Assembly: GCA_010093815.1 (NCBI GenBank)
Contig: ML996568.1
Reading direction: 5' to 3' (one strand)
DNA length: 31,960 nt
DNA from: Pseudovirgaria hyperparasitica
Lineage: Eukaryota
Position numbers and translations under genes: made by a program. The notes under the pieces are model-generated. The model did no database searches. It was not told the origin of the DNA and saw only the letters and a program-made list of their open reading frames with translations. Below are positions 149 through 30,829 of the stretch, piece by piece (the stretch's first letter is position 1; the number at the start of each line of letters is the position of its first letter).

Positions 149-1330
149 TTGCGTTATTATCTATGCCCTATCCCATGGTTCCGCCGTAAGTAGCTCTCCT
201 TCGGCTAGGAAGCCCTCCTATATTATTCTATAGGCGAGAGCGGGGTCCCTAAGCTCTACTATTATAGTAGAGTGCTTTTTCGATTTTATCTTAATCCCTT
301 AGACGTTCTTCTACTACGCCTTTACGATCTTAATCCCGGGGTACTTTAGTTCATTAGATTACTCTATTTACTCGATATCGTCTTCTCCGATAACGTGTCC
401 TTAGACGGGGATAGTATATATCTATATTAGGTACGTGGTTACGCGGACGGACGCGCTAGGGAAGATATTATTAATTACATTCGGGTCGCGTAAGATAGTC
501 TACTAGGCCGTATTAGTAGTGGTAGTTAGTACTATACCTTCTAGGGTAAGTTTGGTAGCTACTATATTTAACTACATCCCTTTCTATTCGTTAATCTTAT
601 TTATAATATCCTTTAGGGACGCTTACTAGACTTATACGAGTACTTCTTTATCCTAGATAGCGACTCGTATACTATATACCCCGTCTATAGGTGCCCTTAG
701 TATTTTAGCTAATATGGCTATTCTACTTATAGGTGCGGCGACCTATGCCCACGTGCTAGGGCGTTTTCCCTAGGTAAGGCCCTCCTAGATCCTCTATAGG
801 CTAGCCTCTATACGATCTAGTCTAGATTCTAGGTCTAGTTCCGGCGCCTATTTTACTTCTATAGTAAGCTCCCTAATATTCTAGATAAGGTTTTAGAAGA
901 TACTAAGGAGGGCCGTTTCTCCCTTCTTAACTTCCCTCTCTATACGTACTATCTAGTAGTTAATCTTATTTAGAAGGGTCTCCCCGGGTAGAGTCCTATC
1001 TATCTCTATTATCTATAGTATTATACGCCCTTAGTTATTCGTCGTTTATTAGACGGGGGTTTAATCGTTCTAGGATATGCCGCTATATAGCCGTTTCTAC
1101 CGTACTAGTATTAGGGGTATACCCGGTGGAAGCCAAGGTACGTCGGTGCCTAAGGCCGCTATAATTATTAGTAAAGGGCTACCCGTAACTAATAAAAAGG
1201 GGGTTAGCGTGTCGGCGTTTATTAGAGATAGTCTATACTTATATTATCGAAGAGCCTTCGAGTATATATATATAGTATCTCTATACATTGGTATCGTTAC
1301 GTATTATATACTATACGTACGTGCATGTAT
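149..1330 (-). mobile_element. Diverged Tad1-like LINE 5' end (5' UTR plus RIP-degraded ORF1 starting ~1162)
   Basis: Reverse complement is clearly homologous to ~3440-4495. Shared features: the hairpin, the ATAGCGGCCTTAGG start context, CGCGACCCGAA and GCGGAACCATGGGATAG (AEPWD). The 5' boundary is approximate. Confidence 0.8.
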
Positions 1331-1644
1331 TTAGTAAGTAAGTATAGAATTAAGACTTTAAGTAAATTATCTTATAAGTTCCCTTTTCTCTTATTAGGGC
1401 TAGTAAGTAATATTTCTAGATAAGAAGGTTTATTCTAAAAAGACTTATCTTAAGTTAGAGAAAGAATATACGGCTACTACTTAGCGAAAGGCTTAGTAGG
1501 ACGCTTAGACCGCCTTTACGTGTCTAGAGTATCTAGAGAAATAGTAGAAGCTATTAGAGCGTCGTTAAAATAATATACTTTATTAGAATCTATTAGTAAT
1601 AGATCTTAAGAAGAAGGAGAAGTAACTTAAATAATAATAGAGAG

Positions 1645-1798
1645 TATAAGGAGGCGGGCTCTATATACTAACTAACTACACTATAAAAGGACCGAATCTT
1701 AAAGCTACTACTTCAAGGGTAGAGCACACTACTTATATACGACTACTATATATATATATAATTAACTAGTAGGCCACGTGCTCCTCACGTGCCTAATA
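1645..1798 (-). repeat. TRIM 3' LTR
   Basis: 154-bp copy of 2096-2249, adjacent to the PPT. Confidence 0.9.
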
Positions 1799-2095
1799 TT
1801 ATCCCCCTTTTTAAAGGCGCGTGTCCTTACGCGTCGTGGGTATACTACCTTACGAAAGATAAACTAAACTAGCCGTAACGGGCCTAGTATAAACCATGTA
1901 CATATACAACCAATACTCGTAATGCCGCCTCTAGCACTAGACACGCTAACTTACCGTAGTAACGTTACTACCATGTTATCCGTTACGTGTATAAAGTACA
2001 CGTAACGTGGTAAGCTAAACGGAATCGTATGAAATTTAGTAACGGTTAACTAGACCGAGAGTTAAACCCGTAACCCCGTAGTAGCTTTAAGATTA

Positions 2096-2249: not shown

Positions 2250-2254
2250 GAGAG

Positions 2255-3228: not shown

Positions 3229-3496
3229 AAACTTCTTTTATATCTCTAAGAGACTAACTTGGTCCATTCGGGGTAATACAGCGAGATATATACCTTAATT
3301 AATAGAGTATACCGAGTACACCAACTACTACTACACGTACATATATATAGCGTCGAAACCAAGACGTTATCGCCATATAAAGATATATATATACCCTCTT
3401 AAAATCCTTACGGAGATAGAGGCACGGACCACGCTACTAGAACGCTAATACGCCGACCCCCTTTTATTAGTTAAGGGTAGCCCTTAACTAATAAAT

Positions 3497-4957
3497 ATAG
3501 CGGCCTTAGGTACCGATATACCCTAGTATATACCGGATATACCCCTACCGGTATAATAGAAAAGGCTATATAGCGATATTACTAAGGGTAGCTATATACC
3601 TATCTAAAACGTAGAATATACCTAAAGGCATATACTACTATAGATAGACGGAATAAAGGGGACCCCGAGAGGGGAAACCCTTCTAGATTATATTAACTAC
3701 TAGGTAGCACGTATAGAGAAGGAAGCCGGAGAGGGCTAGAAGACCCTTCTATATATATTCTAGAACCTTATCTAGAATCTAAAGAGAATTACAGAGAAGG
3801 AGAAGAAGATATAACTAGAAGGACCAGAGGGTAGGCTCGACCAAATAGAGGCTAGCCTACGTAGAATCTAGGAGGAACTTACTTAAGGTAAGCGCCCTAG
3901 TATATAGATATAAATAGTAGTAATACTAGAGGCTATACTACGGGCCCCCCGGACCGGTGACGTGGTATATAGTATACGCGTTATAATCTAGAATAAGAAT
4001 ACCCTAGTATAGGTCTAGTAAGTATCCCTAAAGGATATAGTAAGTAAGATTAATAAATAAAAGGGAATATAGTTAAATATTATCGTCGCTAAACTTATAC
4101 TAGAAGAAGTAGTACTTATTATAATAACGAATATCGCGTAGTAGACTATCTCGCGCGATCCGAACGTAATTAGTAGTATCTTTCTAGGCGCCTCTATTAG
4201 GGCGGCTATATACCCGATATAGGTATACTCTATATCTATAAGCGGATAGGTTATTAGAGAAGAGAATATTACGCGGATAGAATAGTTAAATAAGCGAAAA
4301 TACCTAGGGATTAAGATCGTAAGAGTATAGTAGAAGAATATATAAGGGATTAAAACTAGATTAAAGATATACTCTACTATAATAGTAGAGCTTAAGGACC
4401 CCGCCCTCGCGTATTAAATTATATAAGAGGGATTTCTAGCGGAAGGGGAGCTTCTTATAGCGGAACCATGGGATAGAGTATAGGCGATAATATAGTACTT
4501 TAACTATTAGGGATACGGGTATACGGTATAGCGGTACTTCTAAAAGACTAGGTATAGATAGTATTAATAAGAATATAGTACCTAGGAGTACCTCTACGGG
4601 ATATAAGGAGAGGGCTAGAGGGATAGGGATATGGCGAAGTACTCTAACTATAACGGTAAGTACCCGTCGTAGTCGACTACGTGTACGAAACGTAAATAGG
4701 TTACTAAATATATCTACTTAATCCGGATAAAGGGAGTAAGGTAGCTATAAACGATGCGACCTACTACCGTTCCTCTCTTTACTATAATACTACTACTATA
4801 GACTACCTCCTTACGAGGAAGCGGTTAGAAATAGTAAACTATCCCGAGAAAGCTAATAATAGAACGGCCCTAAGGAATTACTAAGGCCGCCGCTATACGA
4901 GGATAGTCGCGTCTTAGAGGAATAAATATATAGGCCTATATATTCTCTAGCACCTAA
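3497..4957 (+). pseudogene. LINE ORF1, gag-like with three CCHC zinc knuckles (RIP-degraded)
   Basis: De-RIPed QCFNCQGYGH..C, CGWC..H..C and CSNCNGKHPSW..C at ~4490-4685, all in the frame of the inferred ATG (now ATA) at 3497. Confidence 0.8.
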
Positions 4958-7900
4958 TAAGAGACTAAGATATACTTCTAATTATATAGATAAACGTATA
5001 GTATAAACGTAAGAACTAGGCGATACTCCTTAAGGAGACCGGAGCTATAATACTCGCTATATAGGAGCTATATAAATACTACTAGATAAATAAACTAATA
5101 ATACACCTAGAATATTATATAATATACCCCCTAGGACCGGAGAGGAGAGTCCTCTTCTATGTCTATAAGTCTATCCTACTCTTATTATAGTTATATACTA
5201 AACGGGATAACCTCCGGATAATACTACACCTCTAGACGAATATTAGACCCCTCTATATATATAATATATATAATTAGAACTAATCGCTTTAGGTAGATAA
5301 TATACTTAAGGGTACTACCGAGCTAGAATAATATATCCTTCTAGGAGACTTTAACCTCTATTATAGCTAGTAGGGTAGACTAACCGTTACCTACGAAGAG
5401 CTTCGAGCTAGAGAACTACGCACCTAATACTACTACTTTCTATACCTTCTTATACTAGTAGAATAGATTACCTAGCGAAAATATAAATAAGATAAGGGCG
5501 GATCTATACTCGACCTTACCCTAGCCACTAGATATATTTATAATAGAACTTAATACTACCGCCTAAGCCTTATATAGATAGACTCCGACCATGAATATAT
5601 AGAGACCGTAATAGATATATCTACCCCTTAAGACTAACGAGGGCGATAGCTATAGAAGGATACTAACTAGGAAAAGTACCTAAAGGATCTATAATCGACG
5701 ATTCTAGACCCGTCTATAGTTAATATATCTAATGGCCCGGCTATCGACTAGGCCGTGAATATACTTCTATAGGCGTACTAGGGAGTAAGAGATAAACACG
5801 TACCGTACCGAATATATAGACCCCTAGACCCGAAAAGTATACCTTAAGTATAAGAGTATAGGCGAGAAGTCCGGAGATTATATACACGCGTATACTATAA
5901 CTATATACCTAAAGCGTAGAATAAATAGAGAGAGGCGAGAAGATAATAAGATAAGGTTCTCCATAATAAGCGACGTAAATAGTAGTATATAGTTACGGAT
6001 AGATATATACGTAATACTACTAGACTATAGTATATAGTAAAATAGGCTAAAAGTACCGCCTCCCCGACACCTATACTACTTATACCTCCCCTTATATATT
6101 AAGAAAAGATATACTCTACGAGCCTTAAGAAAATAGAGATTCTATAAGAGGTTATGTTCCCTCTTCTAGAACCCGTAGATCTATTAGATATTAATAGTAC
6201 GGAATATCTAGAAGCCGTAAGTATCTCTAGGGAAATCACGGATAACGATATACTCGGCGCTATTAAGATACTCCCGAACGATAAAGCGCCTAGGCTAGAT
6301 AGAATTCTAAATTAATGCCTTAAGAGGACCATATAGGCGACCTTACTAATTATAGGCTATATATTCCGAGCGTGCGCCCGTATAGAATACCACCTATAGA
6401 GCTTCTAAACTATATATATAGTTATACTTCTAAAACTAGGGAAGAGCCTAAACACGCCGAAGGGATAGAGGCTAATCGCCCTCCTCTCCTACCTTAGTAA
6501 AATACTAGAAGCTATAATTACTAAGAAGATAAGTATAGTAGTATAGGTACACGGCCTTCTCCTAGTAAACCAGAAGGCGAAGATAGGAAGCTCCCTAATT
6601 ATAGCTATTTAATATATTCTCGAGGTTATCTAGACTATATAGAAATAAGGACGAGTTATTACGCTACTCTCCCTAGATATAGTAGGGGCGTTTAATAAGG
6701 TAAACCATATAAGACTTATCTATAACCTCCGGATAAGGCGAATACCTAAGTAGATTATACGATTTATATAGTCCTTCCTCGCGTAAAGGACTACTTAAAT
6801 ATATATCTCTAGATACCGAAGCGAATATAAGGAGACGGTATACGGCATCCCGTAAGGGAGTACCATCTCCCTAATCCTCTTCCTCTTCTTTATAGTAGAC
6901 CTTCTTTAGAGAATAGAATATATAAAGGTAGTCGGATACGCGGACGATATATACCTCCTTATAGTTAATAGTAGTACTAGTAGAATATATACACGACTCG
7001 AACGAGACCATAAGAAATACGTCTAGTAGATAAAGTACTACGGAGTAAAATTTACACCTAAAAAATACTAGCTTATATACTTTATTAACCGCTATAGAGG
7101 ATGGACTACTAGGGAGGGGGCACGTCGCCCCTAAATCGACGCCTTTATAGAACTACTAGTATAGAGTATACGCGTACTCGGCGTTATAATTAATAATAAG
7201 CTAAAATAGGGACCATAGGTGGCACACGCCGTCTCTAGAGCCCTCTAGATAGAAACTACTATATACTAGATTACGGCATCCACGTAGGGAATAGCCTAGG
7301 ATAAGGCGAGATAGCTATATATCTCCCTAGTACGCCTAGCCTTTATATACGGATACGAGTACTAGTATACGGCCCTTATATAAGCTTAGCGGGTAAAGCT
7401 TAAGTCTATATAAAACCGTATACTCCGCCTTATCTCCGGCGTATATAAAGCTACTAATATAACGCTCCTCCGACGCGAGATAAACGTAATAAGTATATAG
7501 AACTTCTACTAGATATAGAGACTTATATACTTTACTAAATAATAAGTATAAGAACGTAGAGGAGATAGGGTATATACCTTTACTATACTACGTACACGTA
7601 TCCGCGTGTATTACTAGGCCCTCCCTACTATAGAATAAACTCGAGTATAATATAAATACTATATAGAGGCGGACTCGAGCTAGACCGTGTAGGAGGTTTA
7701 AAATAATCTAGATACCGTCCTAAGCTAATAGAGCCCTAAGGAGCTTAGCCGCGTTATATAGTCGTAGATCTAGAATAAATAGAGGGAGATACTTAAAGCC
7801 TAGTAGGCCTCCTAATAGAATAGGTATCTAGAATAGATCTAAGGGCCTTAGAAGGAACCGAGTAAATAGATATATAAAGGGCTAACGAAGGCCTAAGTAT

Positions 7901-8280
7901 CTATACTTCTCTAAGCCCGAATAGGCGCTATAGGTCTCCTATATTACCTCTACTAGAGAGGTATCCTAGATATATCTCTCTAGTGCGAGGACTACGGCCG
8001 GAGAGATATAATACGCCACTACCTCGCGACGTACTCTAGCCTCTATACCCTAAGATAAGCCCTCGTCCGTATAACGAGGACCTCCGACATTACGCGATAG
8101 CTTAATAAGTACTCTAAGGACGTCACCTAATAGATACTTATATATCTTTCTCTCCCCTAGTTCTAGTAGACCCGCGTATATATACTAGAAGAAGCCCGAT
8201 ATATACTAGAAGAACCCTAGTATACGTCGGAAGAACCCCGGGAGAACCGCGATTATTAGTTAAGGGTAGCCCTTAACTAA
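4957..8280 (+). pseudogene. LINE ORF2: APE endonuclease, reverse transcriptase and C-terminal Cys/His motif (RIP-degraded)
   Basis: De-RIPed motifs ILAIQEP, LLGDFNLHH (5338-), DSDH (5581), KAPGPDGIP, WRPIALLS, LDIAGAFD, GIPQGS. Intact YADD at 6937-6948. No RNase H recognised. Confidence 0.9.
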
Positions 8281-8368
8281 TAATCTCCGCACCTATACGT
8301 GCTACCTAAGGGTAAACTATTATAATATAGGCTATAGGCCTATGGGTAGCCCCTAGAGCTATATATAT

Positions 8369-8739
8369 TATAGAAGGCCGTTCCTGCAGCCCTATATATA
8401 TATATCCCTAGCTCGATTACATAGCTTATTATATATTTAAGGAGGGCGTTTTCCTTGGTCATTCTACTCGGCACGCTTCCCCTATCACTAATATTCGACG
8501 ATTCGACCTTTCCTTACGTTTATAGGCCTCTATAGGTATTAATTATTAGGCTTAGCTATTAATAAATTAATTAAGAGTATTATATAGACCCGTTCTATCG
8601 TAAAAGAGAACTAATAAGAAGTCGTGCGTTTAAAGAGAACTTATAATACCTAGAAGAGATACTTATAAGTTCGTCGCGACTACTATACTAAGAATATAGC
8701 TATTTATAAAAGGGATATACGTAGCGATAGCTCATTATA
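8369..8739 (+). repeat. Outer Gypsy 5' LTR
   Basis: TATAGAAGG...CATTATA (RIP-altered TG...CA). Shares the A4 run and CCTTGGTCATTCTACTCGGC with 30830-31200. Confidence 0.95.
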
Positions 8740-9206
8740 ATTTTAGAGGTTGTACCTAGACTATAAACTTATAGGGGGAGATTAGGACTCCGAAACTAGC
8801 TTAGAGGAAGTATATAGTATGTCTAATAAGGTAGTCTAGACTTACTAGATCGAAGCTATAAGTCCGGAAAACAGGGAGTCCGGAGTCGCTAGGGGCTAGC
8901 CTCTTAAAAGTAGCTATAAAAAGTATATACATGCTAACACGGGTAATAGCGCGACTCGAAAATGTCTTAGGGGAATAGAATATAAAATAGAGCTAGATAA
9001 AGCGATAAAGAAGAGTTTAAAAACGATAAATATAACCTGTTTAGTACTACCATAGCTATTATTTATAAACACGGCTACACGAGTATACTACTTTAGGAAC
9101 GCCTCACACGAAGATAATAACATAAGTAGGATACTATAAACCTTATATCGATAAAGACGATAGTAATAGTTCACCTTATAAAGGGATTAATTAATATAGA
9201 GAAGGG

Positions 9207-12200
9207 ATAATAGGTATTATAGGTAGACGTATTAGGCTAACCTTTAGTTAAGGTAATCCCTTAACTAATAACCTTACCCCTAGCGTCTCTACTAGTATAT
9301 CTACTACTAGTAATAGTGCGATAGAAGCTTAAAATAACGATCTAGTAACTTATAGAGAGATACTTAACTTCTTCGTAGTATTTGCGCGATAAGGAAGAAT
9401 AGTATCTCTATCTACCCTAGCCCCTAAGCGCTTTAAAGGAATAAATATTATAGCCTTCCTTCGGAAGTACGAGGATATATATATAAACTATAAAGTTCCG
9501 TCTAATAAGAAGATAATCTCCCTACTATTATACTATAAGGACTATCTCCGTCCTACTATTAAAGGAATAGATAGGTTTTAGAAATAGTAGTAGGCTATAC
9601 TACGTGAAGAATTATTAAAGGAATTCTCTCTATTTAACTCCGCCCTTAAGGAAGGTACTATCTACTTTATCCGAAAATACGTGGAAATAGTTAAAGTAGA
9701 CCTATCCTACTCTCTCCCTATATACTACTCCCGGTATCGTGTTATTATAGAGAAACTTACGGCTAAAGGAAGCCTAAGCTCGTATTCGCGAATAGAGCTC
9801 TTCCTAGAAGGGCTATCTAATAGTCTTAAGGCTCGGGCTATAGAGAAATGTTAACTCACGATGGAAGCATATAGTTACGACTAGATAATTATCTATGGCT
9901 TTATATTACGAAAGGCTAGAGTACTTAAGGAACTAGCTCGTATTAATAAGCACTTAGCCGTATAGGAGCTAGCTATAGCTATATACTATAAATTAAAGAT
10001 AGAGAGTAAGAAGACTAGCTTAGAAGAGTAGTTATATAAAGAAAGAAGAACTAATAAATTTAGCTACCTCTCTCTAGTCAAAGTACACGTTACGCTAGAA
10101 TTAGATAAGTTTAACGAGATAGTAGAGAGATTTAGTAAACTAGACCTTACGTTAATTAAGATAAAGTCCTACTTTATCTCTAATCCCTTATTCTTATCTC
10201 TTAAGAAGTACGAACCTAAGCTTCTTTCGGCTATTATTAACTAGTAGGCGCGAAGGCTAAATCTTTTAATACACCCCTAAGTACGAGGCATGCCTATAGA
10301 ACTAACGTAAGTTTATCTATAGAATTATATATAGAATAGGGAATACGTCTCTACCCGAGACTCCTAAGGAGGCGTTATAGTCTAGAATAGGCCTTAAAGA
10401 CTAATTATATATATTACATGCGGAGGAGATTACCTAATATATAGATATCCGGAGATAGTAGGATACATTAGAGACGGATTACTAAATATTAACGGGGTAT
10501 AAGTATTCTAAGAGTGTTTCGGGGTGAACGGAGAAGAAATTCTATTACTACCCTCCTTAGTAGAGCTATAAGCTACCCTATAAGCTATCCGGAATTACGT
10601 AGTAATAGTTTAAAATAGTCTAAGCTAGTATAGAGGGGGAGTAAAGGTTTCTATATCTATAGTAAATATTAACGCTTTATAGAGAGTACTAGTATATAGT
10701 ATTAGTATAAAACCTACGAAGGGTCTCTACTAGGCCTTAGCGGATAGTAATTTAGAAGAAGAAGTTATATCGCCCGAGAGTAAGAAAGATAGATATATAG
10801 AATTCTATGAACGCTTCGATATAGCTAGTAATAGATATATCCGTAAGGAGATAGCCCTAGAAGAGTCCGCTATACTTATAATATCTAGAAGGGGGATTAT
10901 AAAGAGTATACCTAATTATACTAAGGAAAGAAAGATCGTCTATCTCTACGGAATACGTTAAGGGTAGTATATAAGGATTATTAAGGAATAGAAGGACGGC
11001 GAGAAGAGTAGTAACTAGAGAATATCTAAATAAGAGCTAATAGCGTCTAAGGATAAGATAGATAAAGGGGATAGCCTAAATCCTAGTTAAAAGGTACGTA
11101 TCCGAGGCGTTAAGCTTAATAACTATCTACGCGAGGGATAGCGGCTAAGTATAGAAGCTAGTAAAGCATAGCTAGTGCGCGTTCTAGGGATAACTATAAA
11201 TATTACTATTAGCGAACTATTAAGCCTTAATAGTAACTTATATCGTGCGGTATTTAAGAAGGGCGCCCCCGACTTTATAGCTAGAGAGATCTATAAGACT
11301 TAAGAGGGGAGAGCCGAGAAGAAAGAAAGAAACGACCATACTATGGCTCCTAAGATAAATAAACTTAATATATTAGTACCCCTCTATACCACGGGGACGG
11401 CTATTATATAATAAGATATTAATTAGCTTAAGGAAGGGATAGTAAGGCTAGTGGCCGAGTATCTAAGATACTCTATAGAAGTTAGTCCTAAAAGGGCGAC
11501 TAGTATAGTACTATTTAATAGTAGTATATAGATAAATAGTATTTAACTAGATACTATAAGGCGTCTCGGGCTAGCGATATCTTCGCTTCTACTATATATA
11601 AAGAACTTAAGTTTAGTTAGCGCTACTTAGTATAGTACTCTATTTATAGAAATAGTATAGTAATACCCTATCTATATAGGTCGGATCGTTATAGCTACTT
11701 CGATATTTATATATAGTAAACTTAATTATAACCTTATTCTAGGGGAGCTATATACTAGATAGACCTTACTTATAGCGCGGAGGTTAGCCTCCGGGTAAGT
11801 ACTCTTAATAGTCTACTCTATATATAGATAAGAACGAGTAACCTTCGAAACTAGTCTAGATAAGTATATTCTAGTCTTAGAGAAGAAGGGTAACTCTATA
11901 GCTAGAGACTAACTATATAGTAGAGTATGTCGCTAGAAGCCGGAGTTAAGCCGGATTATTAGTTAAGGGCTACCCTTAACTAATAATCCGTACTAAATAG
12001 AGTCTGGTAAACCCACTAATAAAGGGGATAGAATATATTTTTATACGGATATAGAAATAAGTTATATAGAGTTACTTTCCGAGAAAATCCGGCCTAAAAA
12101 TATTACTTAGTTATTAAGAAAAGATAACTTAGCCGCCCTAGTTACGGCGGTAAGGTACGCTACCTTCGTATATAAATAAGGCACGATAATAGAATAGCTT

Positions 12201-14124: not shown

Positions 14125-14128
14125 ATTT

Positions 14129-14144
14129 TAGAGGTCGTACCCGG
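14129..14144 (+). promoter_or_regulatory. Primer-binding site, probably complementary to the tRNA-Gln 3' end (outer copy at 8744-8759)
   Basis: TAGAGGTCGTACCCGG, 4 nt after the LTR. Reversing two TpG>TpA changes gives TGGAGGTCGTGCCCGG, which fits a fungal tRNA-Gln acceptor end (...GACCT-CCA) as recalled, not searched. Confidence 0.6.
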
Positions 14145-17500: not shown

Positions 17501-20500
17501 GAGAAAAGATAACTTAGCCGCCCTAGTTATAGTGGTAAGGTACACTACCTTTATATATAAATAAGGCATAATAATAGAATAGCTTATAGTAGGCTCTACC
17601 GGCCTCTAAAGGCGGTATTCATCCGGGGTATTAAAGGGATTTAGTATAGCTACTATATATAAAAGAAAGGGAGTTAAAGTATACCCTATAGATAACTCCG
17701 AAGCCTACCGAAAGGTCCCTAGGAATCTATTAGGGTATCTAGACTAGCGTGAACGAGTAATTATATAGTAGGTACTTCTTCCGGCCGTCCACCTAGGCCT
17801 TAATACGTTTAATAGACTAATAGAGCCTTAAAGGGTAACTATCCCGCTAGAAACACGTCTAACACCTCTATATATAAGTTAGCTAAAGATTAGAATAGAG
17901 CTACGTCCTATAGAACTTAAGTTACTATATACGATCTTATTATATCGCGAGGAAGTACTAGTATAGGAATTCTTATATCTTAGTAAATTTAATAAAGAGG
18001 TGGCACCTCTATAGGAGATCTGAACGGTAGAACATAAGGTATAGTAGGCTAAGAACTTTAATATTCCTAGAGCCCTTTACGGGAAGGTACTTACGATTCT
18101 AAAAGAGCGTCTTAATAGCGGAAGGCTCGAGCCCTATAGTAGTTCTTATTAAAACGTCTATTTTCTCGTAGAAAAGAAGAAGGAAGCTAATAAGGAACGA
18201 GATTATAGGTTAATTAATTCGGCGATAGAAATTAACCGAGTTACTATTCGTAATACGGCCACGCCGCCCTTATATAAAGAATTCTTAGAGTACTTTACGG
18301 GGATGGCCGTCTTAACGTTTACCGACTTCTTCTTAGGATATAATTAGATTCTATTAGTAGAGCATTACCGAGACTTAACGGGGTTTATAACGCCCCTAGA
18401 ATTACTACACGGGATAATATTACCTTAAGGGGCCACTAATTTAGTAGCTTAGTTCGTTAGGATTATATTAACTATTATATAAGAATACATCCCGGAGAGG
18501 GCTCTACCATTCCTAGATAACTTAGATATTAAAGGACCTATAACGAAATATAACTCTAAGGAGGCCCTGCCTAGAATTTATAGATATATTCTAGAATATT
18601 TAATTAACGTAGATAAGGTTCTCGCGGATATAGAGCGCGCTAGATACGCCCTAAGTAGTAAGAAGACTTAGTAGTGTATTAAAGCTGCTAACGTTATAGG
18701 ATACGTCTACGGCATTAAAGGGAGGCGACCGAGTAATAAAAAGGTTACTACTATTAGGGACTAGAAACCCTATAAAAACACGACGAATATGCGAGCCTTT
18801 CTTAGCGTTTATATATATTTCCGGATATAGATCCCCGGGTACGCTATTATTATATCGCCGCTATTTATACTATTAAAGAATAAATTGGCCTAGTAGTAGA
18901 TAGCTAAGGAGTAGACCTCGATGGTCGCGCTAAAGATAGCTCTAACTACTACTCCCGTACTAATAACGTTACGGTACGGGATAGGTATAGAAGATATAAT
19001 TCTAGTAGTAGACTCTAGTAACGTTAGGTAGGGGGCTACGTTAATATAGGAGAACGAGAATTATAAATATTAGCTATCGCGGTATAATAGAGGAATATAG
19101 TTAAAAGCTAAGAGAAACTATAATACCGTGAAACTAGAGTGCCGAGCCCTCCTCCACGCGTTATAGAAGTTCTAGTAATACCTCTATAGTACGTACTTTA
19201 TTATGGAAATAGATACGAATACTCTAGTTACTTAAATTAACCGTACTATAACTAACTTACTAGGGGCGCTCGTTACTAGGTGGCTCGCGTGGATTTAGCT
19301 ATAGAACTTTATAGTTAGGCATATATCTAGGAAGCGTAATATAGTCGCCGACGGTATCTTACGGATGCACGAAGGAGAAGAACTACTAGACGTCTCTATC
19401 TTTAACCTAGACGAGTTCGTGGATATGGCTCTATATATAGACGTACTAGAGACGTCGTTAATTAAGCCTATTAGCGGGAGAGATTACACGATAGGGATAC
19501 TCGACTATACCGCTATTAAGTCTCCCTTAATAGATAAATATAGTAATAAATAGTAGAGGATTACGAAGTATCTTACTATACTTAAGAGACTAACTAACCT
19601 AACCGACTAAGCGTATAAGGCCTTTATAACCGACTATCTAAAGTTCCTTATACGTAACTAAATACTCTAGTAGAGAGGAGATAGGCATCGCTAACACACA
19701 CGAGTAATTAAGGATCCGAATACTAGGGCGCGTATAATTACTACTACTTATAATAAGATAGATTATAGAGGTAGCGAAGGGACCCTCGGAAGGATTAAGG
19801 ATAAGTATTAGTAGGTAGGTATACGTAGAGACGTGCGATAGCACGTGAAAACCTATAATAAATATTAACGACGAAGTAAGCTCCTCGGAGGTCTTAATAA
19901 AGGGCTCTACCACGTTATAACGCCTATTCTTTAGTAAAGAATATACTTAGACGTAACGACACTACTACCTTCTATAGGGTATAGTAAAGTAGTATCTATA
20001 CGAGAATAGCTAAGCGGATAGACTAAGGCGGAGGCATGTACGGCGGCCACGTCTATAGTCGTCGTAAAGTTCCTCTTTAAGAACGTAATCTATAGATACG
20101 GAATTATTCCTAAAATTACCTATAATAGTGGTAGAGAAAATATAGGTGCCATAGAGGAGCTCCTCCGACTCTATAGAATTTATTAGAAGATTATATCTAC
20201 GTATAATCCCCGAGTAAATAGAATTATTAAGAGAAGTTTTATACTACTCGCTAATACTCTCGCGAAGATGACTAATAGCGGATTTAAGAACTAGCCCGAC
20301 CACCTCCATGCGGTTATCTAGGTAGATAGAATAATAATACGTACTAGTATAGGGTATAGTACTATATACCTCGTGCTCGGCTATAAACTAATTATGCCTA
20401 TTAAAGTCGAATTCGAGTCGCTCTAAATGCTCCCTTAGGACGAGGTGCGATTAACGTCCGACTTACTCGCTCTTCGAGCTAGATAACTTAAGAGAAGATC

Positions 20501-21008
20501 CGAGGATCTTAAGGAGGTCTATACCCACGTAATATAAACGCGTAAGGAATTAAGAGAGGCATAGAATAATAACTATCACCTTCGTCTAGAGTCGTTACTA
20601 GTTAATATAATTATCCTTCTATACGACTCGTAGCGATAGAAGAATATAGAGCGAAAGCTAAGGTAGTATTAGAGGGGGCTATATAGAATCTAGTCCGTGT
20701 TTAATTATACTTATAAGCTCGCGGAGCTTAATAGAGCCATGCTTAGAGGGACGTTTCCTAGCTATAGATTAAAGAAATATTTTATAAGAAATGCGAGTAA
20801 CGAGAGTTATAACGAGCCCTTACGACTACTAATTAGAAGAATTACCGAGGAAAATAAGGAGAGTAGTAATAAGGAAAACTATTATAAATAACTTACGGAA
20901 TACCTCGACGACGCTATACGAACCCGGGTAGAAGTGGTAATTCCTACTCCGTAAGACTTTAATAGAGAGGAATATTTATGTTTCCCTAGAATTAATATCT
21001 TCTTCTAG
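14592..21008 (+). pseudogene. Inner Gypsy single-frame gag-pol polyprotein (~2140 codons): gag with Zn knuckle, PR, RT, RNase H, IN; no chromodomain
   Basis: All de-RIPed motifs lie in one frame: CITCGGDHLMYRC (15795-15833), LFDSGAQVN (~16896), TMYKRKGVKV, LPQGATNSVAQF (18420), FLDD, VDSS..GWGA, KLECRAL, integrase HVKTCDKCQ, LSGWTEA, CDGGREN, YNPRANG. Start and stop are approximate. Confidence 0.9.
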
Positions 21009-21340
21009 GGGATAGAAGTTTTTTTAAGGAGGGAAGGGATGCTTATAAAAGTAGTCTTATAACGATGAACTCTATTATCGAAAGAGAATAATAAACCCTA
21101 TCATTACTATAAAATAATAAAACCTATTATTAAAGTAAGTAATGCTTGAAAGAAGACATAATGGCGTTTACGCGAAATTCCACCTATCATACATTAAAAC
21201 TAGTCGTGTAATCGAAGCCTACCTATCGAAGGTCTATTTCGTTACTATAGAACGGGCCCTATTAGAAACTAATAAGGAAGAAAAGAAGGAGAAGGTATAA
21301 GAGAAAAAGATACTTATAGGAAGTCTTATAGGGATAAGAA

Positions 21341-21441
21341 TATACCCGGTATCTATTTATTTATAGATTCCGCTATATACCCGGTAGATATATTTATTTA
21401 TAGATTTCCTATATACCTAGTATATATTTATTTATAGATTC
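21341..21441 (+). repeat. Three ~35-bp tandem repeats between pol and the extra ORF (outer copy ~27375-27475)
   Basis: Unit TATACC(C/T)(G/A)GTA..TATTTATTTATAGATT starting at 21341, 21376 and 21412. Confidence 0.75.
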
Positions 21442-21663
21442 GACACGTATACGGGCCTACGGCCGTTAGTAAGGATCATTTATAAAAATTACTATATACC
21501 CGGCATTCGAGGAGGCATAAAAAGAGAACTTAAGATAGTATATAACTCTTCCCTCTTATACCTCTCTATATCTCCTTAATTAATAAAACCTCCTCCTCTA
21601 CTTCCGCCTCGCTTAAACTACCTCTCCTTAGAACGTAACTCGCCGATAGAACTAATAATAATA

Positions 21664-24645
21664 ATAGCCCCGCTAAAGAAGAAAACGCCTACCCGTGAAG
21701 AGTTATAAGATTATTAAGCACTAATAAGATAGACGCGGTTCTAGTTAAGAGTCGTGAGTACTAAAGTAGGGCTATCGACGGCTATGGTAGTATTAAGGCT
21801 ATCTACTACTCTACACGGATAGGCTATAGAAGCTACGGAAATAAATAAGTCTACCATTAACTAAATTATCGCTATCTAGGACCCGTAAGAGCGATAGGAC
21901 TATATTCTAGACACGTTTAATAATCTCCTTTATATTACTAGCCTTATAGAATAGCTCTTAAGTAGTATAGTCGACCTCTTCTAGGAAGTAGGAGCCGTAA
22001 TAGGGTATAGTAAGGTAAAGATTAACTCCTCTATTCTAAAAGAAGTCTATAAGATAATTCGTCGTGGAAGAGATACTAACTCCCGTATTCTAAAAGCTAA
22101 AAATGCAATCCTATAAAACTAGCAAAAAGACCTCTCTAATAATAATAGCTAGTTACTCTAATCCGCCCTCGGACAGCTCTAGTAAATATAGAACTTTATA
22201 GAAAAGCTAGTAGCGCTCTTATAAGTGCGAACATGGGCGAGAGCGAGGAACTAGTTAAACGTATCTCTATAGTTCTAAATCGGCTAGGGATAGAAGGGAA
22301 GGGGAATTAAGGTATATCTTTAGAGCTCTAATATTAATACCGCCCTAGCTAGCGATAGTAACGAGGACGGCCTATCTCTCTAGTAACTCTTAAACTACCC
22401 TAGCCAATAAAATAAACTAATGTTCTATAATAAGATAGGACTTATTATCCCTACTAGTTAATAGTTACGGATAAGTAGAATGGTTCATAGGCCCGTTAAA
22501 TACTATCTATAAATTAAAGAGATAAGTATATCGCCTCCGCCTTAGACCTTACCGTCGCTAAAACTAGCGTAGGTAACGTCTATAGTAAAGTCCCCTCCAC
22601 GAAGCACGCCTTCTAGTTTAGTAGTATATCGTCTCTTCGAAGCTAGTCGTCCGTTCGAAGTAAGTATTCCTTCTACTACTACTAGTAAACGTCCCTTACT
22701 AGGCTATGCGAGAACGTCTTTAGTGCCCGTTACGGCTACGCCGATAAAATCTACTCGTGGGCGTGCCTTATCTACCGGCCCTTAGTAATTACTAGGGGCG
22801 CCTATATAGTAATCCCCGGTTATTCTTAGTTCGTACTCTAAGATAATAGTATTAGTCGAGGAAGAGGACGAGCCTAAGAAGTATTAATGCGCGCCTTTAG
22901 TGACGAAGACTTTTAAGGTAGCTACATTATTAAAGAAGAATTTCACGAGCATTAAGGGAATGGCCCTACTAGTACGCTAGAAAGCGTAGATAGGTAACAT
23001 GGCTATTCTATATAAAGTCTACTATAAGCATTACTAAGACGTGGCTAGAAAGAATAATATACTCGTTAGCGTGTCCTACTTAAACCTAGTAGCGAGACTT
23101 AAAATAGTATATAAGTTTAGAGATAACATGGGGGCCCTTAAAGTTTATAAGAACCGCTATACCTAGTTCGCGAAGTACGCGCGGCCACCTTATCCAATAG
23201 AGGCATTAGGTATCTATTATTACTAGGCCCTAGAGACCCCGAAGCAAGTTATTAATATTAAAACCATCCTTACTAGTATTATATTTATAATTTAGAAGGA
23301 GGATAGTAGAATAGGTAGGTAACTCTTCGACGAGTAGGAACGTACTAGAAGTATTAATATTAAAGGGCTCTTCGAGCTACTTAAAAAGACGACCTCTATA
23401 CTTAATAAGAGTATCCTAGAACTCGCGAGGGATGAATTTAATATGTACAAGTACTACTAGTGTATATTTAATAAGAAATCGAACTACGGCTAGCTACGAA
23501 CTATATACTACTCCTATATCTAATAGTTTATTAGGTAATACCTACTTTACTAGCTTATCTATATCGCTCTTCGGCCCGATCTTAACTACTATCTAATCTC
23601 GTACCTATACTATGCGAAGTCCTAGGATAGAGGCGATAAGACGGGTTTTAAGCATCTTAATAACGCTATCAATCGAATCCTCGATCCTAGTAATAGACAC
23701 GGGTTTAATATAATCTAGGGGAGTATTAGTCTCGATAACGAACGAAGTAACGACTATACTATAATCGTTCCCCGCTTCTATAAGTTCTTAAATAAATAGT
23801 AGTTAAAGGCTAAGCTCCGCGAGGGGGTCAATCGAAACGGTATAATTACGGCTATTAACGATAAGATCTATAATAAGGATAATAGGAAACGATTTGGTCC
23901 CTTCGTCCCGGTCCCCTACCAGTCCCTTAAAGTACGTATCTCTAGCCCCCTAATAATACACGGCGCCTAGGGTCCCGTAAAGGGTAGAAGATGTACGATA
24001 CTTCTATGGTATATCGCGATTAGCCCTAATTATATAATAATAGAAGTGCCTAAAATAGGTATATAGGAATAACTCGTAGTAGCTTATAGGAATTTAACTC
24101 CGGGACCTATATCTCTATCGGGATTTTCTAATAAATACAGCGCGATTCCTTTTACCTTCCTAGCCGTAGTTTAACTCCCGAGTTTTAACGCCGTTAGTAA
24201 CGTATTAGTTAGTCGTAAAAGATAGGATAGCTAGAAGGTAAAAGAAGAGGTAGCTACGTAGCTTAACGCAAGTCCTTAATAACTTAAAGCTAAGGTAGAC
24301 GCCTAGTTTAAGGAGGGCTCGAGGGTATTCGTAGAGACCTTTAAGAAAATAGTAAGATAGGAAAGGCTAGTCTATAGGGATAGGTCGTTCTAGAAGGAAT
24401 TTAACGAGGCGCGCGCCGCTAAGCGGCTAATTAATTTTAAGAAATTCGAGCCCGACGCGGGCCTAGATAACGTTAAAGAGAACTTCTACGGATAGAAGAG
24501 GCCTAATAAACTATCCGACGAGAAGGAATCTAACCTCTCTAAGATAAGCGATATAATTCTTTAGAAGCTAGCTCGCGACCTCGAGTACTAAGATTAGGCG
24601 CCTAAAAACCTACCTAATTATTAGTTAAGGGCTGCCCTTAACTAA
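21664..24645 (+). pseudogene. Extra ORF (~990 codons) of the inner Gypsy; C-terminal putative PhyH-like 2OG-Fe(II) dioxygenase domain
   Basis: One frame whose stops are all TAA/TAG, compatible with RIP. De-RIPed LISYPYYAK..GDKTGFKHL(D) (His 23653), NMIQGSVSLDDE...CT.IVPRFH, IHGAQGP (His 23959), RRTILPWY. Start and stop are inferred. Confidence 0.7.
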
Positions 24646-24779
24646 TAATCCGGGCTAAGGTTTACCCGCGCTAAGGGGTTTACTAGGGGCGTATTTTATT
24701 CGTATTAAGGTCTTTCTTTTGGGCGTTCTTCACACGGTTTCTTACACGGTTACTATACTACTAAGGGTAGTAGTTCTAT

Positions 24780-24795
24780 GGGCCGGGGAGGTATA
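24780..24795 (+). promoter_or_regulatory. PPT-like tract before the inner 3' LTR (outer copy ~30814-30829)
   Basis: GGGCCGGGGAGGTATA lies directly before the LTR start. Confidence 0.6.
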
Positions 24796-25167
24796 TATAG
24801 AAGGCCGTTCCTGGCGCCCTATATATATATATCCCTAGCTCGATTACATGGCTCATTATATATTTAAGGAGGGCGTTTTCCTCGGTCATTCTGCTCGACA
24901 CGCTTCCCCCATTACTAATATTCGATAATTCGACCTTTCCTTACGTTCATGGGTCTCTATGGGTATTGATTATTAGGCTTAGCTATTAATAAATTAATTA
25001 AGAGTATTATATAGACCCGTCCTATCGTAAAAGAGAACTAATAAGAAGTCGTACGTTCAAAGAGAACTTATAATACCTAGGAGAGATACTTGTGAGTTCG
25101 TCGCGACTACTATACTAAGAATATAGCCATTTATAAAAAGGGACATACGTGGCGATAGCTCATTACA
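24796..25167 (+). repeat. Inner Gypsy 3' LTR
   Basis: Intact CA end followed by TSD CTAG. Confidence 0.95.
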
Positions 25168-25171
25168 CTAG

Positions 25172-27042
25172 AGTACCGAGCCCTCCTCTATACGTTATAG
25201 AAGTTCCGGTAATACCTCTATAGTATATACTTTATTATAGAAATAGACACGAATACTCTAGTCGCTTAAATTAACCGTACTATAACTAACTTACTAGGGG
25301 CGCTCGTTACTAGGTGGCTCGCGTGGATTTAGCTATAGAACTTTATAGTTAGGCACGTACCTAGAAAGTATAATATAGTCGCCGACGGTATCTTATAGAT
25401 ACACGAAGGAGAAGAACCACTAGACGTCCCTATCTTTAACCTAGATAAGTTCGTGGATATAGCTCTATATATAGACGTACTAGAGACGTTATTAATTAAG
25501 CCTATTAGTAGGAGAGATTCTATAATAGGGATACTCGACTATACCGCTATTAAGTCTCCCTTAATAGATAAATATAGCGATAAATAGTAGAGAATTACGA
25601 AGTATCTTACTATACTTAAGAGGCTAACCGACCTAACCGACCGAGCGTATAAGGTCTTTATAACCGACTATCTAAAGTTCCTTATACGTAACTAAATACT
25701 CTAGTAGAGAGGAGATAGATATCGCTAATATACACGAGTAATTAAGGATCCGAATACTAGGGCGCGTATAATTACTACTACTTATAATAAGATAGATTAT
25801 AGAGGTAGCGAAGGGACCCTTAGAAGGATTAAGAATAAGTATTAGTAGATAGATATATATAGAGACGTACGATAGCACGTAAAAACCTATAATAAATATT
25901 AATAACGAAGTAAGCTCCTCGGAGGTCTTAATAAAGGGCTCTACTACGTTATAACGCCTATTCTTTAGTAAAGAATATACTTAGATATAACGATACTACT
26001 ACCTTCCATAGAGTATAGTAAAGTAGTATCTATATGAGAATAGCTAAGTAGATAGACTAAGGCGGAGGTATATACGGCGGCTACGTCTATAGTTATTATA
26101 AAGTTCCTCTTTAAGAACGTAATCTATAGATATAGAATCATTCCTAAAATCACCTATAATAGTGGTAGAGAAAATATAGGTACCATAGAGGAGCTCCTCC
26201 GACTCTATAGAATTTATTAGAAGGTTATATCTATGTATAATCCCTAAGTAAATAGAATTATTAAGAGAAGTTTTATACTACTCGCTAATACTCTTACGAA
26301 GATAACTAATGGCGGATTTAAGAACTAGCCTAACTACCTCTATACGGTTGTCTAGGTAGATAGAATAACGATACGTACTAGTATAGGGTATAGTACCGTA
26401 TACCTCGTGCTCGGCTATAAACTAATTATACCTATCGAAGTCGAATTCGAGTCGCTCCGAATACTCCCTTAGAACGAGATATAATTAATATCCGACTTAC
26501 TTACTTTTCGAGCTAGATAACTTAAGAGAAGATCCGAGAATCTTAAGAAGGTCTATACCCACGTAACACGAACGTATAAGAAATCGAGAGAGGCATAGAA
26601 TAACGACTATTACCTTCGTTAAGAGTCGTTACTAGTTAATATAATTATCCTTCTATATAACTTATAGTAATAGAAGAATATAGAGCGGAAGCTAAGGTAG
26701 TATTAGAGGGGGCTATATAGAATCTAGTCCGTGTTTAATTATACTTATAAGCTCGCGGAGCTTAATAGAGCTATACTTAGAGGGACGTTTCCTAGCTATA
26801 GGTTAAAGAAATATTTTATAAGAAATATAAGTAACGAGAGTTACGACGAGCCCTCGCGACTATTAATTAGAAGAATTACTAAGGAAAATAAGGAGAGTAG
26901 TAATAAGGAAAACTATTATAAATAACTTACGGAACACCTCGATAATACTATACGAACCTAGGTGGAAGTAGTAATTCCTACTCCGTAAGACTTTAATAGA
27001 GAGAAATATTTACGTTTCTCTAGAATCGATATCTCCTTCTAG
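25172..27042 (+). pseudogene. Outer Gypsy pol, C-terminal part (rest of RNase H and integrase)
   Basis: Copy of 19138-21008 at offset 6034. Resumes exactly after the TSD. Confidence 0.9.
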
Positions 27043-27697
27043 AGGATAGAAGTTTTTTTAAGGAGGGAAGGGATACTTATAAAAGTAGTCTTATAACGAT
27101 AAACTCCATTATCGAAAGAGAATAATAAACCCTATCATTACTATAAAATAATAAAACCTATTATTAAAGTAAGTAATGCTCGAAAGAAGACATAATGGTG
27201 TTTACGCGAAATTCCACCTACTATACATTAAAACCGGTCGTGTAATCGAAGCCTATCTATTAAAGGTCTATTTCATTACTATAGAACGGGCCCTATTAGA
27301 AACTAATAAGGAAGAAAAGAAGGAGAAGGTATAAGAGAAAAAGATACTTATAGAAAGTCTTATAAGGATAAGAATATACCTAGTATCTATTCATTTATAG
27401 ATTCCGCTATATACCCGGTAGATACATTCATTTATAGATTTTCTATATACCTAGTATATATTTATTCATAGATTCGACACGTATACGGGCCTACGGCCAT
27501 TAGTAAGAATCATTTATAAAAATTACTATATACCCGGTATTTAAGGAGGCATAAAAAGAGAACTTAAGATAGTATATAACTCTTCCCTCTTATACCTCTC
27601 TATATCTTCTTAATTAATAAAACCTCCTTCTCTACTTCCACCTTACTTAAACTATCTCTCCTTAGAACGTAACTCGCTAATAGAACTAATAATAATA

Positions 27698-30679
27698 ATA
27701 GCCCTACTAAAGAAGAAAACGTCTACTCGTAAAGAGTTATAAGATTATTAAGTACTAATAAGATAGACGCGGTCCTAGTTAAGAGTCGTGAGTACTAAAG
27801 TAGGGCCATTAATAGCTATTATAGTATTAAGGCCATCTACTACTCCGTACGGATAGGCTATAGAAGCTACGGAAATAAATAAGTCTACTATTAACTAAAT
27901 TATCGCTATCTAGGACCCGTAAGAGCGATAGGACTATATTCTAGATACGTTTAATAATCTCCTTTATATTACTAGCCTTATAGAATAGCTCTTAAGTAGT
28001 ATAGTTAACCTCTTCTAGGAAGTAGAAGCCGTAATAGAGTATAGTAAGGTAAAGATTAACTTCTCTATTCCGAAAGAAGTCTATAAGATAATTCGTCGTA
28101 GAAGAGATACTAACTCCCGCTTCCTAAAAGCTAAAAATGTAATCCTATAAAACTAGCGAAAAGACCTCTCTAATAACGACGGCTAGTTACTCTAATCCGC
28201 CCTTAGATAGCTCTAGTAAATATAGAACTTTATAGAAAAGCTAGTAGCGCTCTTATGAGTACAAATATAGGCGAGAGCGAGGAACTAGTTAAACGTATCT
28301 CTATAGTTCTAAATCGGCTAGAGATAGAAGGGAAGGGGAATTAAGGTATATCTTTAGAGCTCTAATATTAATACTACCCTAGCTAGTAATAGTAATAAGG
28401 ACGGCCTATCTCTCTAGTAACTCTCGAACTACCCTAGCTAATAAAATAAACTAACGTTCTATAATAAGACGGGACTTATTATCCCCGCTAGTTAATAGTT
28501 ACGGATAAGTAGAATGGTTTATAGGCCCGTCGAATACTACCTATAAATTAAAGAGATAAGTATATCGTCTCCGCCTTAGACCTTACTATTACTAAAACTA
28601 GTATAGATAATATCTATAGTAAAGTCCCCTCCACGAAGTACGCCTTCTAGTTTAGTAGTATATTATCTCTTCGAAGCTAGTCGTCCGTTTAAAGTAAGTA
28701 TTCCTCCTACTACTACTAGTAAATATCCCTTACTAGGCCATATAAGAATATCTTTAGTGCCCGTTATAGCTATACCGATAAAACCTACTCGCGGACGTGC
28801 CTTATCTACCGGCCCTTAGTAATTACTAGGGGCGCCTATATAATAATCCCCGGTTATTCTTAGTTCGTACCCTAAGATAATAGCATTAGTTAAGAAAGAG
28901 AACGAGCCTAAGAAGTATTAATACGCGCCTTTAGTAACGAAGACTTTTAAGGTAGCTATATTATTAAAGAAGAATTTCACGAGTATTAAGGGAATAGCCC
29001 TACTAGTACGCTAGAAAGCGTAGATAGGTAACATAGCTATTCCGTATAAAGTCTACTATAAGTATTACTAAGACGTAGCTAGAAAGAATAATATACTTAT
29101 TAGTATATCCTACTTAAACCTAGTAGCGAGACTTAAAATAGTATATAAGTTTAGAGATAACGTAGGGGCCCTTAAAGTTTATAAGAACCGCTATATCTAG
29201 TTCGCGAAGTACGCGTGGCCACCTTATCTAATAGAGGCATTAGGTATCTATCGTTACTAGGCCCTAGAGACCCCGAAGTAAGTTATTAATATTAAAACCA
29301 TCCTTACTAGTATCGCATTTATAATTTAGAAGGAGGACGGTAGAATAGATAGGTAACTCTTCGACGAGTGGGAACGTACTAGAAGTATTAATATTAAAGG
29401 GCTCTTCGAGCCACTTAAAAAGACGACCTCTATACTTAATAAGAGTATTCTAGAACTCGCGAGGGATGAATTTAATATATATAAGTACCACTAGCGCATG
29501 TTTAATAAGAAATCGAACTACGGCTGGCTACGAACTATATACCACTCCTATATCTAATAGTTTATTAGGTAATACCTACTTTACTAGCTTATCTATATTA
29601 CTCTTCGGCCCGATCTTAACTACTATCTAATCTTATACCCGTACTATGCGAAGTCCTAGAATAGAGGCGATAAGACGGGTTTTAAGTATCTCAATAACGA
29701 TATTAATCGAATCCTTAATCCTAGTAATAGATATGGGTTTAATATAATCTAGGGAAGTATTAGTCTCGACGACGAACGAAGTAACGACTATACTATAATC
29801 GTTCCCCGCTTCTATAAGTTCTTAAACGAATAGTAGTTAAAGGCTAAGCTCTATAAGGGGGTTAATTAAAACGGTATAATTACGGCTATTAACGATAAGA
29901 TCTATAATACGGACGATAGAAAATGATTTAGTCCCTTCGTCCTGGTCCCCTACTAGTCCCTTAAAGTATATATCTCTAGCCTACTAATAATATACGGCGC
30001 CTAGGGTCCCGTAAAGGGTGGAAGACGTATAATACTTCTATGGTATATCGCGATTAGCCCTAATTATATAATAATAGAAGTATCTAAAATAGGTATATAG
30101 GAATAACTCGTAGTAGCTTATAGGAATTTAACTCCGGGACCCATGTCTCCGTCGGGATTTTCTAATAAATATAGTATGATTTCTTTTATCTTCCTAGCCG
30201 TAGTTTAACTCCCGAGTTTTAACGCCGTTAGTAACGTATTAGTTAGCTATAAAAGATAGGATAGCTAGAAGATAAAAGAAGAGGTAGCTACGTGGCTTAA
30301 CATAAGTCCTTAATAACTTAAAGCTAAGGTAGACGCCTAGTTTAAGGAGGGCTCGAGGGTATTTATAGAGATCTTTAAGAAAATAGTAAGGTAGAAAAGA
30401 CTAGTCTATAGGGATAGGTCGTTCTAGAAGGAATTTAATAAGGCGCGCGCCGCTAAGCGGCTAATTAATTTTAAGAAATTTAAGCCCGACGCGGGTCTAG
30501 ATAATATTAAAGAGAACTTCTATAGATAGGAGAGGTCTAACGAACTATCCGATAAGGAGAAATCTAACCTCTCTAAGATAAGCGATATAATTCTTTAGGA
30601 GCTAGCTCGCGACCTCGAGTACTAAGATTAGGCGCCTAAAAACCTACCTAATTATTAGTTAAGGGCTACCCTTAACTAA
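27698..30679 (+). pseudogene. Extra ORF of the outer Gypsy (putative 2OG-Fe(II) dioxygenase domain protein)
   Basis: Copy of 21664-24645 at constant offset 6034. Retains SLDDE, FDEWERT, YGWLR and ISYPYYAK codons lost in the other copy. Confidence 0.7.
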
Positions 30680-30829
30680 TAATCTAGGCTAAGGTTTACC
30701 CGTACTAAGAGGTTTACTAGGGGCGTATTTTATTTATATTAAGGTCTTTCTTTTAGGCGTTCTTTACATAGTTTCTTATACGGTTACTATACTACTAAGA
30801 GTAGTAGTTCTATAGGCCGGGGAGGTATA

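Follow-up and report, generated by a model that had tools for sequence, protein, structure and literature searches.

A short palindrome common to a LINE and a Gypsy retrotransposon family in Pseudovirgaria hyperparasitica

Cis-acting hairpins are known in single retroelement families. We describe here a palindrome that recurs in two unrelated ones, a long interspersed nuclear element (LINE) and a Ty3/Gypsy retrotransposon with long terminal repeats (LTRs), within a stretch of 31,960 nt from contig ML996568.1 of the fungus Pseudovirgaria hyperparasitica (assembly GCA_010093815.1; this whole stretch is called the window below). Among described systems, a hairpin called the Conserved Hairpin Site (CHS), found in the fungal GalEa Copia elements, replaces the primer binding site directly after the 5' LTR; it is made of two 9-nt boxes that stand 12-41 nt apart with a fixed A/A mismatch, it belongs to one Copia clade, and variants of its boxes due to repeat-induced point mutation (RIP) are noted (PMC5445492). 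An extended CHS of 33-62 bp is also described there as common to different families within one species (PMC5445492, 2017). Stem-loops have further been reported at the 3' end of stringent-type LINEs such as UnaL2 of the eel and ZfL2 of the zebrafish (PMC1636434, PMC4176376), and self-complementary dimerisation sequences in the genomic RNA of retroviruses and of Ty1 (PMC6844567, PMC5454406). In the literature searched, the palindrome unit is undescribed, and so is an identical hairpin common to a LINE and an LTR element of one genome and placed at the borders of coding modules.

The window is saturated with RIP (TA/AT = 1.74, (CA+TG)/(AC+GT) = 0.17), and no open reading frame (ORF) of at least 100 codons is left in it. 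A first, sequence-only reading of this DNA had named nine positions at which one palindrome recurs, in LINE and Gypsy sequence alike. A search for the pattern TTAGTTAAGGG-NNN-CCCTTAACTAA with up to three mismatches returned nine matches where 0.00 were expected, starting at 1168, 3467, 8256, 9244, 11959, 14629, 17344, 24621 and 30655; six of them have no mismatch, two have one and one has two. The palindrome is thus present at all nine of the named positions, and the highest count in 100 dinucleotide-preserving shuffles was zero, so that a motif common to the LINE and the Gypsy element lies far beyond chance. An inverted-repeat scan found perfect arms of 15-18 nt around a centre of 1-3 nt in seven of the nine copies, which qualify as terminal inverted repeats, and confirmed the perfect 18-nt arms previously reported at 11952-11990. 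When the window was searched with a single arm, 16 arm matches fell within the nine palindromes. Two solo matches, both weak, were found outside them (2.05 expected by chance); a lone arm-like match with one mismatch and no partner arm, at 31892-31905 in unrelated sequence 3' of the outer of two Gypsy copies, is within this chance number.

The nine palindromes represent five independent sites, because one Gypsy copy is nested in another and the LINE is present in two copies, LINE-a and LINE-b. Self-BLAST, together with LTR and target-duplication analysis, showed that 9244/14629, 11952/17339 and 24617/30651 are pairs resulting from the nested Gypsy insertion, and the palindromes at 1165 and 3463 are one site in two inverted LINE copies. 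Two sites therefore belong to the LINE (S1 and S2) and three to the Gypsy element (P1, P2 and P3). S1 lies in the 5' untranslated region (UTR) of LINE-b (3463..3495, plus strand), about 137 nt within the detectable LINE homology, with 15-nt arms and the centre TAG; its counterpart in the inverted LINE-a (1165..1195, minus strand) has decayed by two transversions. S2 lies in the 3' region of LINE-b (8251..8285, plus strand), some 85-115 nt upstream of the LINE 3' end at about 8368, with 16-nt arms and again the centre TAG. The Gypsy sites are all on the plus strand. P1, near the start of gag, is found at 9244..9268 in the outer copy, where it starts about 505 nt past the point at which the 5' LTR stops (8739) and has a degenerate centre (GGTAATCCC), and at 14629..14653 in the inner copy. 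P2, between protease and reverse transcriptase, occupies 11952..11990 in the outer copy, with its perfect 18-nt arms, and 17339..17373 in the inner copy. P3 lies about 145 nt upstream of the 3' LTR, where an extra ORF ends, and occupies 24617..24649 in the inner copy, with the unmutated centre CTG, and 30651..30683 in the outer copy.

The unit shared by these sites measures about 31-35 bp. Its arms are 14 nt long at all sites and extend to 16 nt (GATTATTAG... / ...CTAATAATC) at S2 and P2, and at P3 as well if one RIP-type change is allowed; P2 has a few additional complementary bases beyond the 16-nt arms. The similarity stops there. When 40-nt flanks anchored at the unit were compared without gaps, for all site pairs and in both orientations, 47 of the 48 comparisons were at chance level, the exception being the left flanks of S2 and P2, in which 22 of 40 in-register positions agree (p 0.0004, uncorrected for 48 tests). 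None of 40 pairs passed the 1% level in a RIP-aware local alignment of the flanks, and homology between the left flanks of S2 and P2 was rejected, their score of 21 in this alignment standing against a null mean of 23.3 (p 0.72). The flanking target-site duplications that the sequence-only reading had advised looking for were absent, no direct repeat lying beside any of the five sites; a TA may be hidden inside the arms. As judged from these alignments, the unit is discrete: the sites have the module in common but not its flanks, which are unrelated. That elements without kinship, and with flanks that differ as well, should be identical over 31-35 bp implies that a discrete unit was transferred, at least into each family, and the transfer was probably separate for each site.

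Other copies of the two families were collected from sequencing runs as contigs with at least 80% likeness to 3441-13756, a stretch that spans four of the five sites (S1, S2, P1 and P2). Of two DNA runs from one sample, X1 yielded at least 26,775 such contigs and X2 yielded 9,556. Two more runs, X3 and X4, bear the same species label and contain next to none of the mutated stretch. Among the X1 and X2 contigs, none skips a palindrome at the four sites covered, and none of the nine joints listed in these contigs, some of them seen in a single contig, removes a palindrome; empty sites, which had also been suggested as a check, were thus not found at these four sites. Both families carry the unit at the four sites in all copies detectable in the source sample. 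An artefact of assembly or adapters was considered and rejected, the unit being at homologous positions in thousands of contigs from two runs. Summed depth was 561,245 at the unit (position 8261), with 104,665 at 7923 and 40,262 at 8860 beside it. The five sites borne by the transposable elements would together give roughly the depth at the unit, and there is therefore no sign of a large extra population, although the comparison is rough and a weak measure, depth varying along the stretch. All together, two very abundant retrotransposon families, both inactivated by RIP, carry the palindrome as a fixed module of about 31-35 bp that is built into them.

A less mutated form of the unit could be read at the LINE 3' site. 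X3 and X4 hold 11 and 4 contigs matching 3441-13756, and both LINE palindromes are covered in them at a depth of 31-130, S1 over 3450-3493 with 4 other letters and S2 over 8231-8316 with 11 other letters. The flanks in these contigs look unmutated and their loose ends are CA-rich; in X4, a contig of 4,383 nt is also similar to the LINE in patches. These contigs may be transcripts or unmutated LINE copies, and an intact or expressed LINE member of the family may exist. Among the matches listed, S2 in the least mutated contigs differs from the window only at 8261 (T to C), 8262 (A to G), 8267 (T to C) and 8275 (A to G), and the same letters occur in 5-6 contigs of X1 (about 0.7% of depth) and in contigs of X3 and X4. 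In this form the inner arms read GTCGAGGG / CCCTTGAC around the centre CAG, and they contain a single mismatch, G opposite T, which is a G-U pair in the sense RNA of the LINE. The outer TTATTAG / CTAATAA of S2 shows no change among the best-supported matches listed. The pre-RIP form proposed earlier (TGATCAG...CTGATCA, with TCAAGGG) is thus unsupported at the LINE 3' site by the least mutated contigs. Because the least mutated S2 copies hold an arm mismatch, the perfection of the palindrome appears to be partly the work of RIP, which would later have wiped out the CpA, TpG and CpG differences and left perfect arms. RIP sends different dinucleotides to one end state, and an imperfect inverted repeat can therefore become a perfect palindrome; in practice, a perfection made in this way can mislead de-RIP reconstructions.

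The palindrome had been said to lie often at ORF boundaries, and a position at the edges of coding modules is supported. In the second LINE ORF (ORF2), a CX2CX7HX4C motif that shows RIP-type changes of Cys to Tyr is separated from S2 by 75 codons, nine of which are stops in the ORF2 frame. With nine stops in its last 75 codons, ORF2 probably ends before S2, and S2 probably belongs to the LINE 3' UTR instead of forming the ORF2 stop; a common ORF end reading DQSRAALD-stop, as formerly suggested, is not supported at this site. If TTATTAG is native, the DQSRAALD phase would stop at its TAG. In the Gypsy element, stops are sparsest in the gag-pol frame between about 14427 and about 21900, the surroundings of P2 included. 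P1 and P2 are read in one phase (..S-X-G-L/N-P-L-T-N-N..), the only phase of the unit that is stop-free under any possible original spelling, and the chance that both fall in it is 1/9. Relatives of the Gypsy pol are numerous (22,095 at E<=0.001). All of the ten best (P0001-P0010), which are automatic gene models at most 36% identical, begin 41-126 residues before a conserved T-L-Y-K-R-K block, and P2 lies about 95 residues before it (window 16578-20177), which places P2 at an ORF or module border of the relatives. These ten relatives are without protease; protease and reverse transcriptase may be encoded by separate ORFs in this clade. A word-based search for closer protein relatives across P2 found none, and none of the 150 best HMMER matches (at most 46% identical) contains a peptide like that encoded by the unit. 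As to P3, the C-terminal tail of the extra ORF before it is 75 residues long, near the tails of its homologues (65 and 69 residues), and P3 is thus at a natural ORF end.

When folded as RNA, the isolated hairpins of S1, S2, P2 and P3 reach z-scores of -4.0 to -6.5. The S1 hairpin lies inside an 81-nt fold of -26.5 kcal/mol (z -4.0), and the fold at S2 has a z-score of -4.9. At P1, 10 bp of stem remain around a different loop, of 5 nt (z -2.1), and the S1 copy of LINE-a is at chance level (z -1.0). Rfam gave no match at gathering score in the window and none at E<=1 in 11850-12100.

We tentatively favour a reading in which both ancestral elements received a discrete hairpin module that retrotransposition then spread and that works as a stem-loop in the sense RNA. 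By this account the module would have reached the ancestors of the LINE and of the Gypsy element as a discrete unit, before the families expanded, the most plausible route being that reverse transcriptase paused at a stable hairpin and switched template from one retroelement RNA to another; a transfer during reverse transcription would account for both the retroelement-only occurrence and the sharp borders. The module would then have been multiplied passively by retrotransposition, and kept as a stem of 15-16 bp with a 3-nt loop in the sense transcript, for an RNA-level step common to both elements. Such a step could be recognition by one common factor, or it could be pairing between copies, 5' with 3' or RNA with RNA, which is conceivable because every copy is complementary to every other. 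We lean towards an RNA stem-loop signal in view of the positions, on either side of the coding region of the LINE and at three borders of Gypsy modules, of the stem retained at P1 despite its divergence, and of the mismatch that is compatible with a G-U pair. By analogy, the extended hairpin common to different Copia families of one fungal species may be counted on the same side.

Several observations weigh against this reading. There is no covariation: the arms are alike at all sites, the two changes in LINE-a are both non-compensatory, and the compensatory substitutions that the sequence-only reading had suggested seeking were not found among the sites. The loops differ, with CAG on the sense strand of the LINE, CTG on the sense strand of the Gypsy element and TAAT in P1, and if the Gypsy unit were simply the LINE unit inverted, the G-U pair would turn into an A-C mismatch. 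Additional pairing of the flanks was tried and rejected: it reached p 0.01-0.05 at four sites against random places, but Fisher p 0.26 against composition-matched shuffles, the apparent excess arising because the flanks are richer in G+C. The location of P2, and perhaps of P1, in the only open phase is also expected from the survival of harmless in-frame insertions, and fixation is no less expected of a module that is simply older than a single burst.

It is quite possible, and nearly as likely as the RNA-hairpin reading that we favour, that the unit is a neutral passenger, a tiny foldback sequence that landed in harmless positions of two master elements and was copied along without function. 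Sharp boundaries and unrelated flanks are expected of such a passenger, all five positions would tolerate insertion (UTRs, an open-phase linker and an ORF end), and P1 and P2 both lie in the stop-free phase, a coincidence of one in nine. The differing loops, the lack of covariation and the lack of a significant site-specific extension of the stem point the same way. Conservation after inactivation is uninformative here, since hardly any RIP-susceptible dinucleotide is left in the mutated unit. However, a passenger must have entered about 17 kb of master sequence five separate times; the window holds no solitary copy, no subfamily was found that lacks even one of the four sites covered, the sites are without target-site duplication, and no mobilising mechanism is known.

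A more daring version of an RNA-level role, a self-complementary 'handshake' module moving between unrelated retrotransposons and retained by both, or else a related eukaryotic mini-element resembling the bacterial repetitive extragenic palindromic (REP) elements, is unlikely. If the handshake is real, LINE RNA could be circularised by its 5' and 3' copies, and LINE and Gypsy RNAs could be joined so as to be packaged together or to allow template switching, a process that would in itself spread the module; if the unit is a REP-like mini-element, insertion into single-stranded retroelement cDNA would explain why it occurs in retroelements only.

That the unit works as double-stranded DNA is improbable. 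By this account it would be a site at which a dimeric protein, for instance a host factor, a tyrosine recombinase or a HUH-type enzyme, binds or recombines the DNA, or it would extrude as a cruciform. Its two-fold symmetry around a single asymmetric centre base and its half-sites of 14-16 bp suit a site of this type, which, being independent of orientation, also fits both the CAG and the CTG centres. However, the least mutated form falls short of a perfect palindrome, there is no partner enzyme in the window, where the Pfam matches are to retroelement domains only, and the nested insertions of the window are not located at palindromes. We hold it for similarly doubtful that the Gypsy sites originated as pieces of the LINE 3' end gained by recombination, the LINE being the sole true owner. 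The in-register match of the left 40 nt of S2 and P2 speaks for such a borrowing, but the same pair is at the null mean in the RIP-aware alignment, the other Gypsy sites show no flank signal, and the centre base differs between the LINE and the Gypsy element.

Least probable, for all its inverted-repeat structure and small size, is a free-living miniature inverted-repeat transposable element (MITE) spread through the genome and caught in the LINE and the Gypsy element by chance, which the sequence-only reading had named as its opposing case: the unit has only five fixed, family-specific positions, all of them in about 17 kb of master sequence, without solitary copies in the window, empty sites at the four sites covered or flanking duplications, and with a depth that the two families explain. 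At 31-35 bp, the unit is also far under the size of any MITE known to us. Among metagenome contigs, a RIP-degenerate pattern matched seven loci with four distinct sequences, none of which has a CWG centre or a RIP-like composition; at four of the seven loci the sequence sits inside a bacterial recG-type helicase gene. These bacterial matches look like chance and were taken as such. DNA of Gypsy relatives was absent from the viral contigs, and the one genome contig found, of 3.1 kb, covers only reverse transcriptase to integrase, without the borders.

The sequence-only reading had left three meanings for the shared motif, a protein site, an RNA hairpin or a tiny mobile unit. The common motif stands, and the results do not decisively separate the three. 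If the unit is functional, either two otherwise independent parasites share the need for one host or RNA-level step, or retroelement classes exchange sequence directly during reverse transcription; if it is a passenger, a very small unit is able to enter retroelements repeatedly.

The layout of the window was determined by self-BLAST, Pfam scans with stops read as X, LTR alignment and reading of the junctions. LINE-b (3326..8368, plus strand) has an ORF1-like part, in which a coiled coil and a zinc knuckle were read by eye, followed by ORF2 with an endonuclease domain at nt ~5254-5602 and a reverse transcriptase domain at nt ~6457-7188 (Pfam matches Exo_endo_phos_2 and RVT_1). LINE-a (155..1336, minus strand) is limited to the 5' part and repeats 3326-4492 in inverted orientation, so that the window contains one LINE 3' end; the two copies stand head to head, with a homology that reaches 1336/3326 in a more sensitive comparison. 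The approximately 2 kb between the facing LINE 5' ends (1337-3325) include a very A+T-rich stretch, as well as a 152-bp direct repeat (1645-1796 and 2096-2247, 92%) whose ends contain CACGTG.

The Gypsy element is 11.4 kb long (Pfam match RT_RNaseH). Its inner, complete copy (13753..25167, plus strand; LTRs 13753-14124 and 24796-25167) is inserted in the pol of the outer copy, at the border of reverse transcriptase and RNase H, with the target duplication CTAG (13749-13752 and 25168-25171). The outer copy, also on the plus strand, is split into a 5' part (8369..13752) with LTR (8369-8739), gag, protease and reverse transcriptase, and a 3' part (25168..31200) with RNase H, integrase, the extra ORF and LTR (30830-31200). 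Two apparent 'tandem' repeats of 5.4 kb and 6.0 kb are explained by this nesting of one copy in another of the same family. In contigs of both X1 and X2, LINE position 4394 is joined to Gypsy position 10313 with 12 other letters between them and a depth of about 450-600. This LINE-Gypsy junction recurs at other places in the genome and does not lie at a palindrome. The extra ORF follows integrase in both copies (~22620-24626 and 28650-30660). It has two homologues of about 900 amino acids (P0151 and P0152; E 6e-56 and 5e-49) and, as read by eye, HxD...H motifs of the 2-oxoglutarate/Fe(II) dioxygenase type; neither a Pfam family nor a solved structural relative was found for it. Another palindrome, imperfect and with the centre AATT, lies within the extra-ORF region of both Gypsy copies (22769-22808 and 28802-28843; arms of 23-24 nt, 78-79% complementary).

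When compared with known systems, the palindrome has its nearest printed parallel in the CHS, and it shows none of the defining features of the CHS. In both cases a short conserved hairpin, without an assigned role, lies in a non-coding part of a fungal LTR retrotransposon. However, the hosts are here a LINE and a Ty3/Gypsy element and not GalEa Ty1/Copia elements, there are five positions of which none adjoins an LTR (P1 being about 505 nt past it), and the arms of 14-18 nt enclose a 3-nt centre without an A/A mismatch. As in the stringent-type LINEs, a stable stem-loop is present in the LINE 3' tail (S2) and is common to an unrelated mobile element. There, the sharer is a short interspersed nuclear element mobilised in trans, whereas here it is a Gypsy element, itself autonomous, whose insertion shows LTRs and a 4-bp duplication, CTAG; moreover, the palindrome is also found in the LINE 5' UTR.

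MITEs, foldback elements and bacterial REP elements are small inverted-repeat units found between genes. The palindrome differs from MITEs and foldback elements in that no empty sites, no duplication and no dispersed copies were found, and in being several times smaller than eukaryotic MITEs; we know of no partner transposase for it. REPs are of the same size class as the palindrome unit and are likewise without target duplications. Finally, the dimerisation palindromes of retroviruses and Ty1 are short, about 6-10 nt, and exposed in loops of the 5' leader. They resemble the present case in being palindromic retroelement RNA able to pair with a second copy; in the window, however, the palindrome is the stem itself, with 3 nt looped, and it is found in several places, the LINE included.

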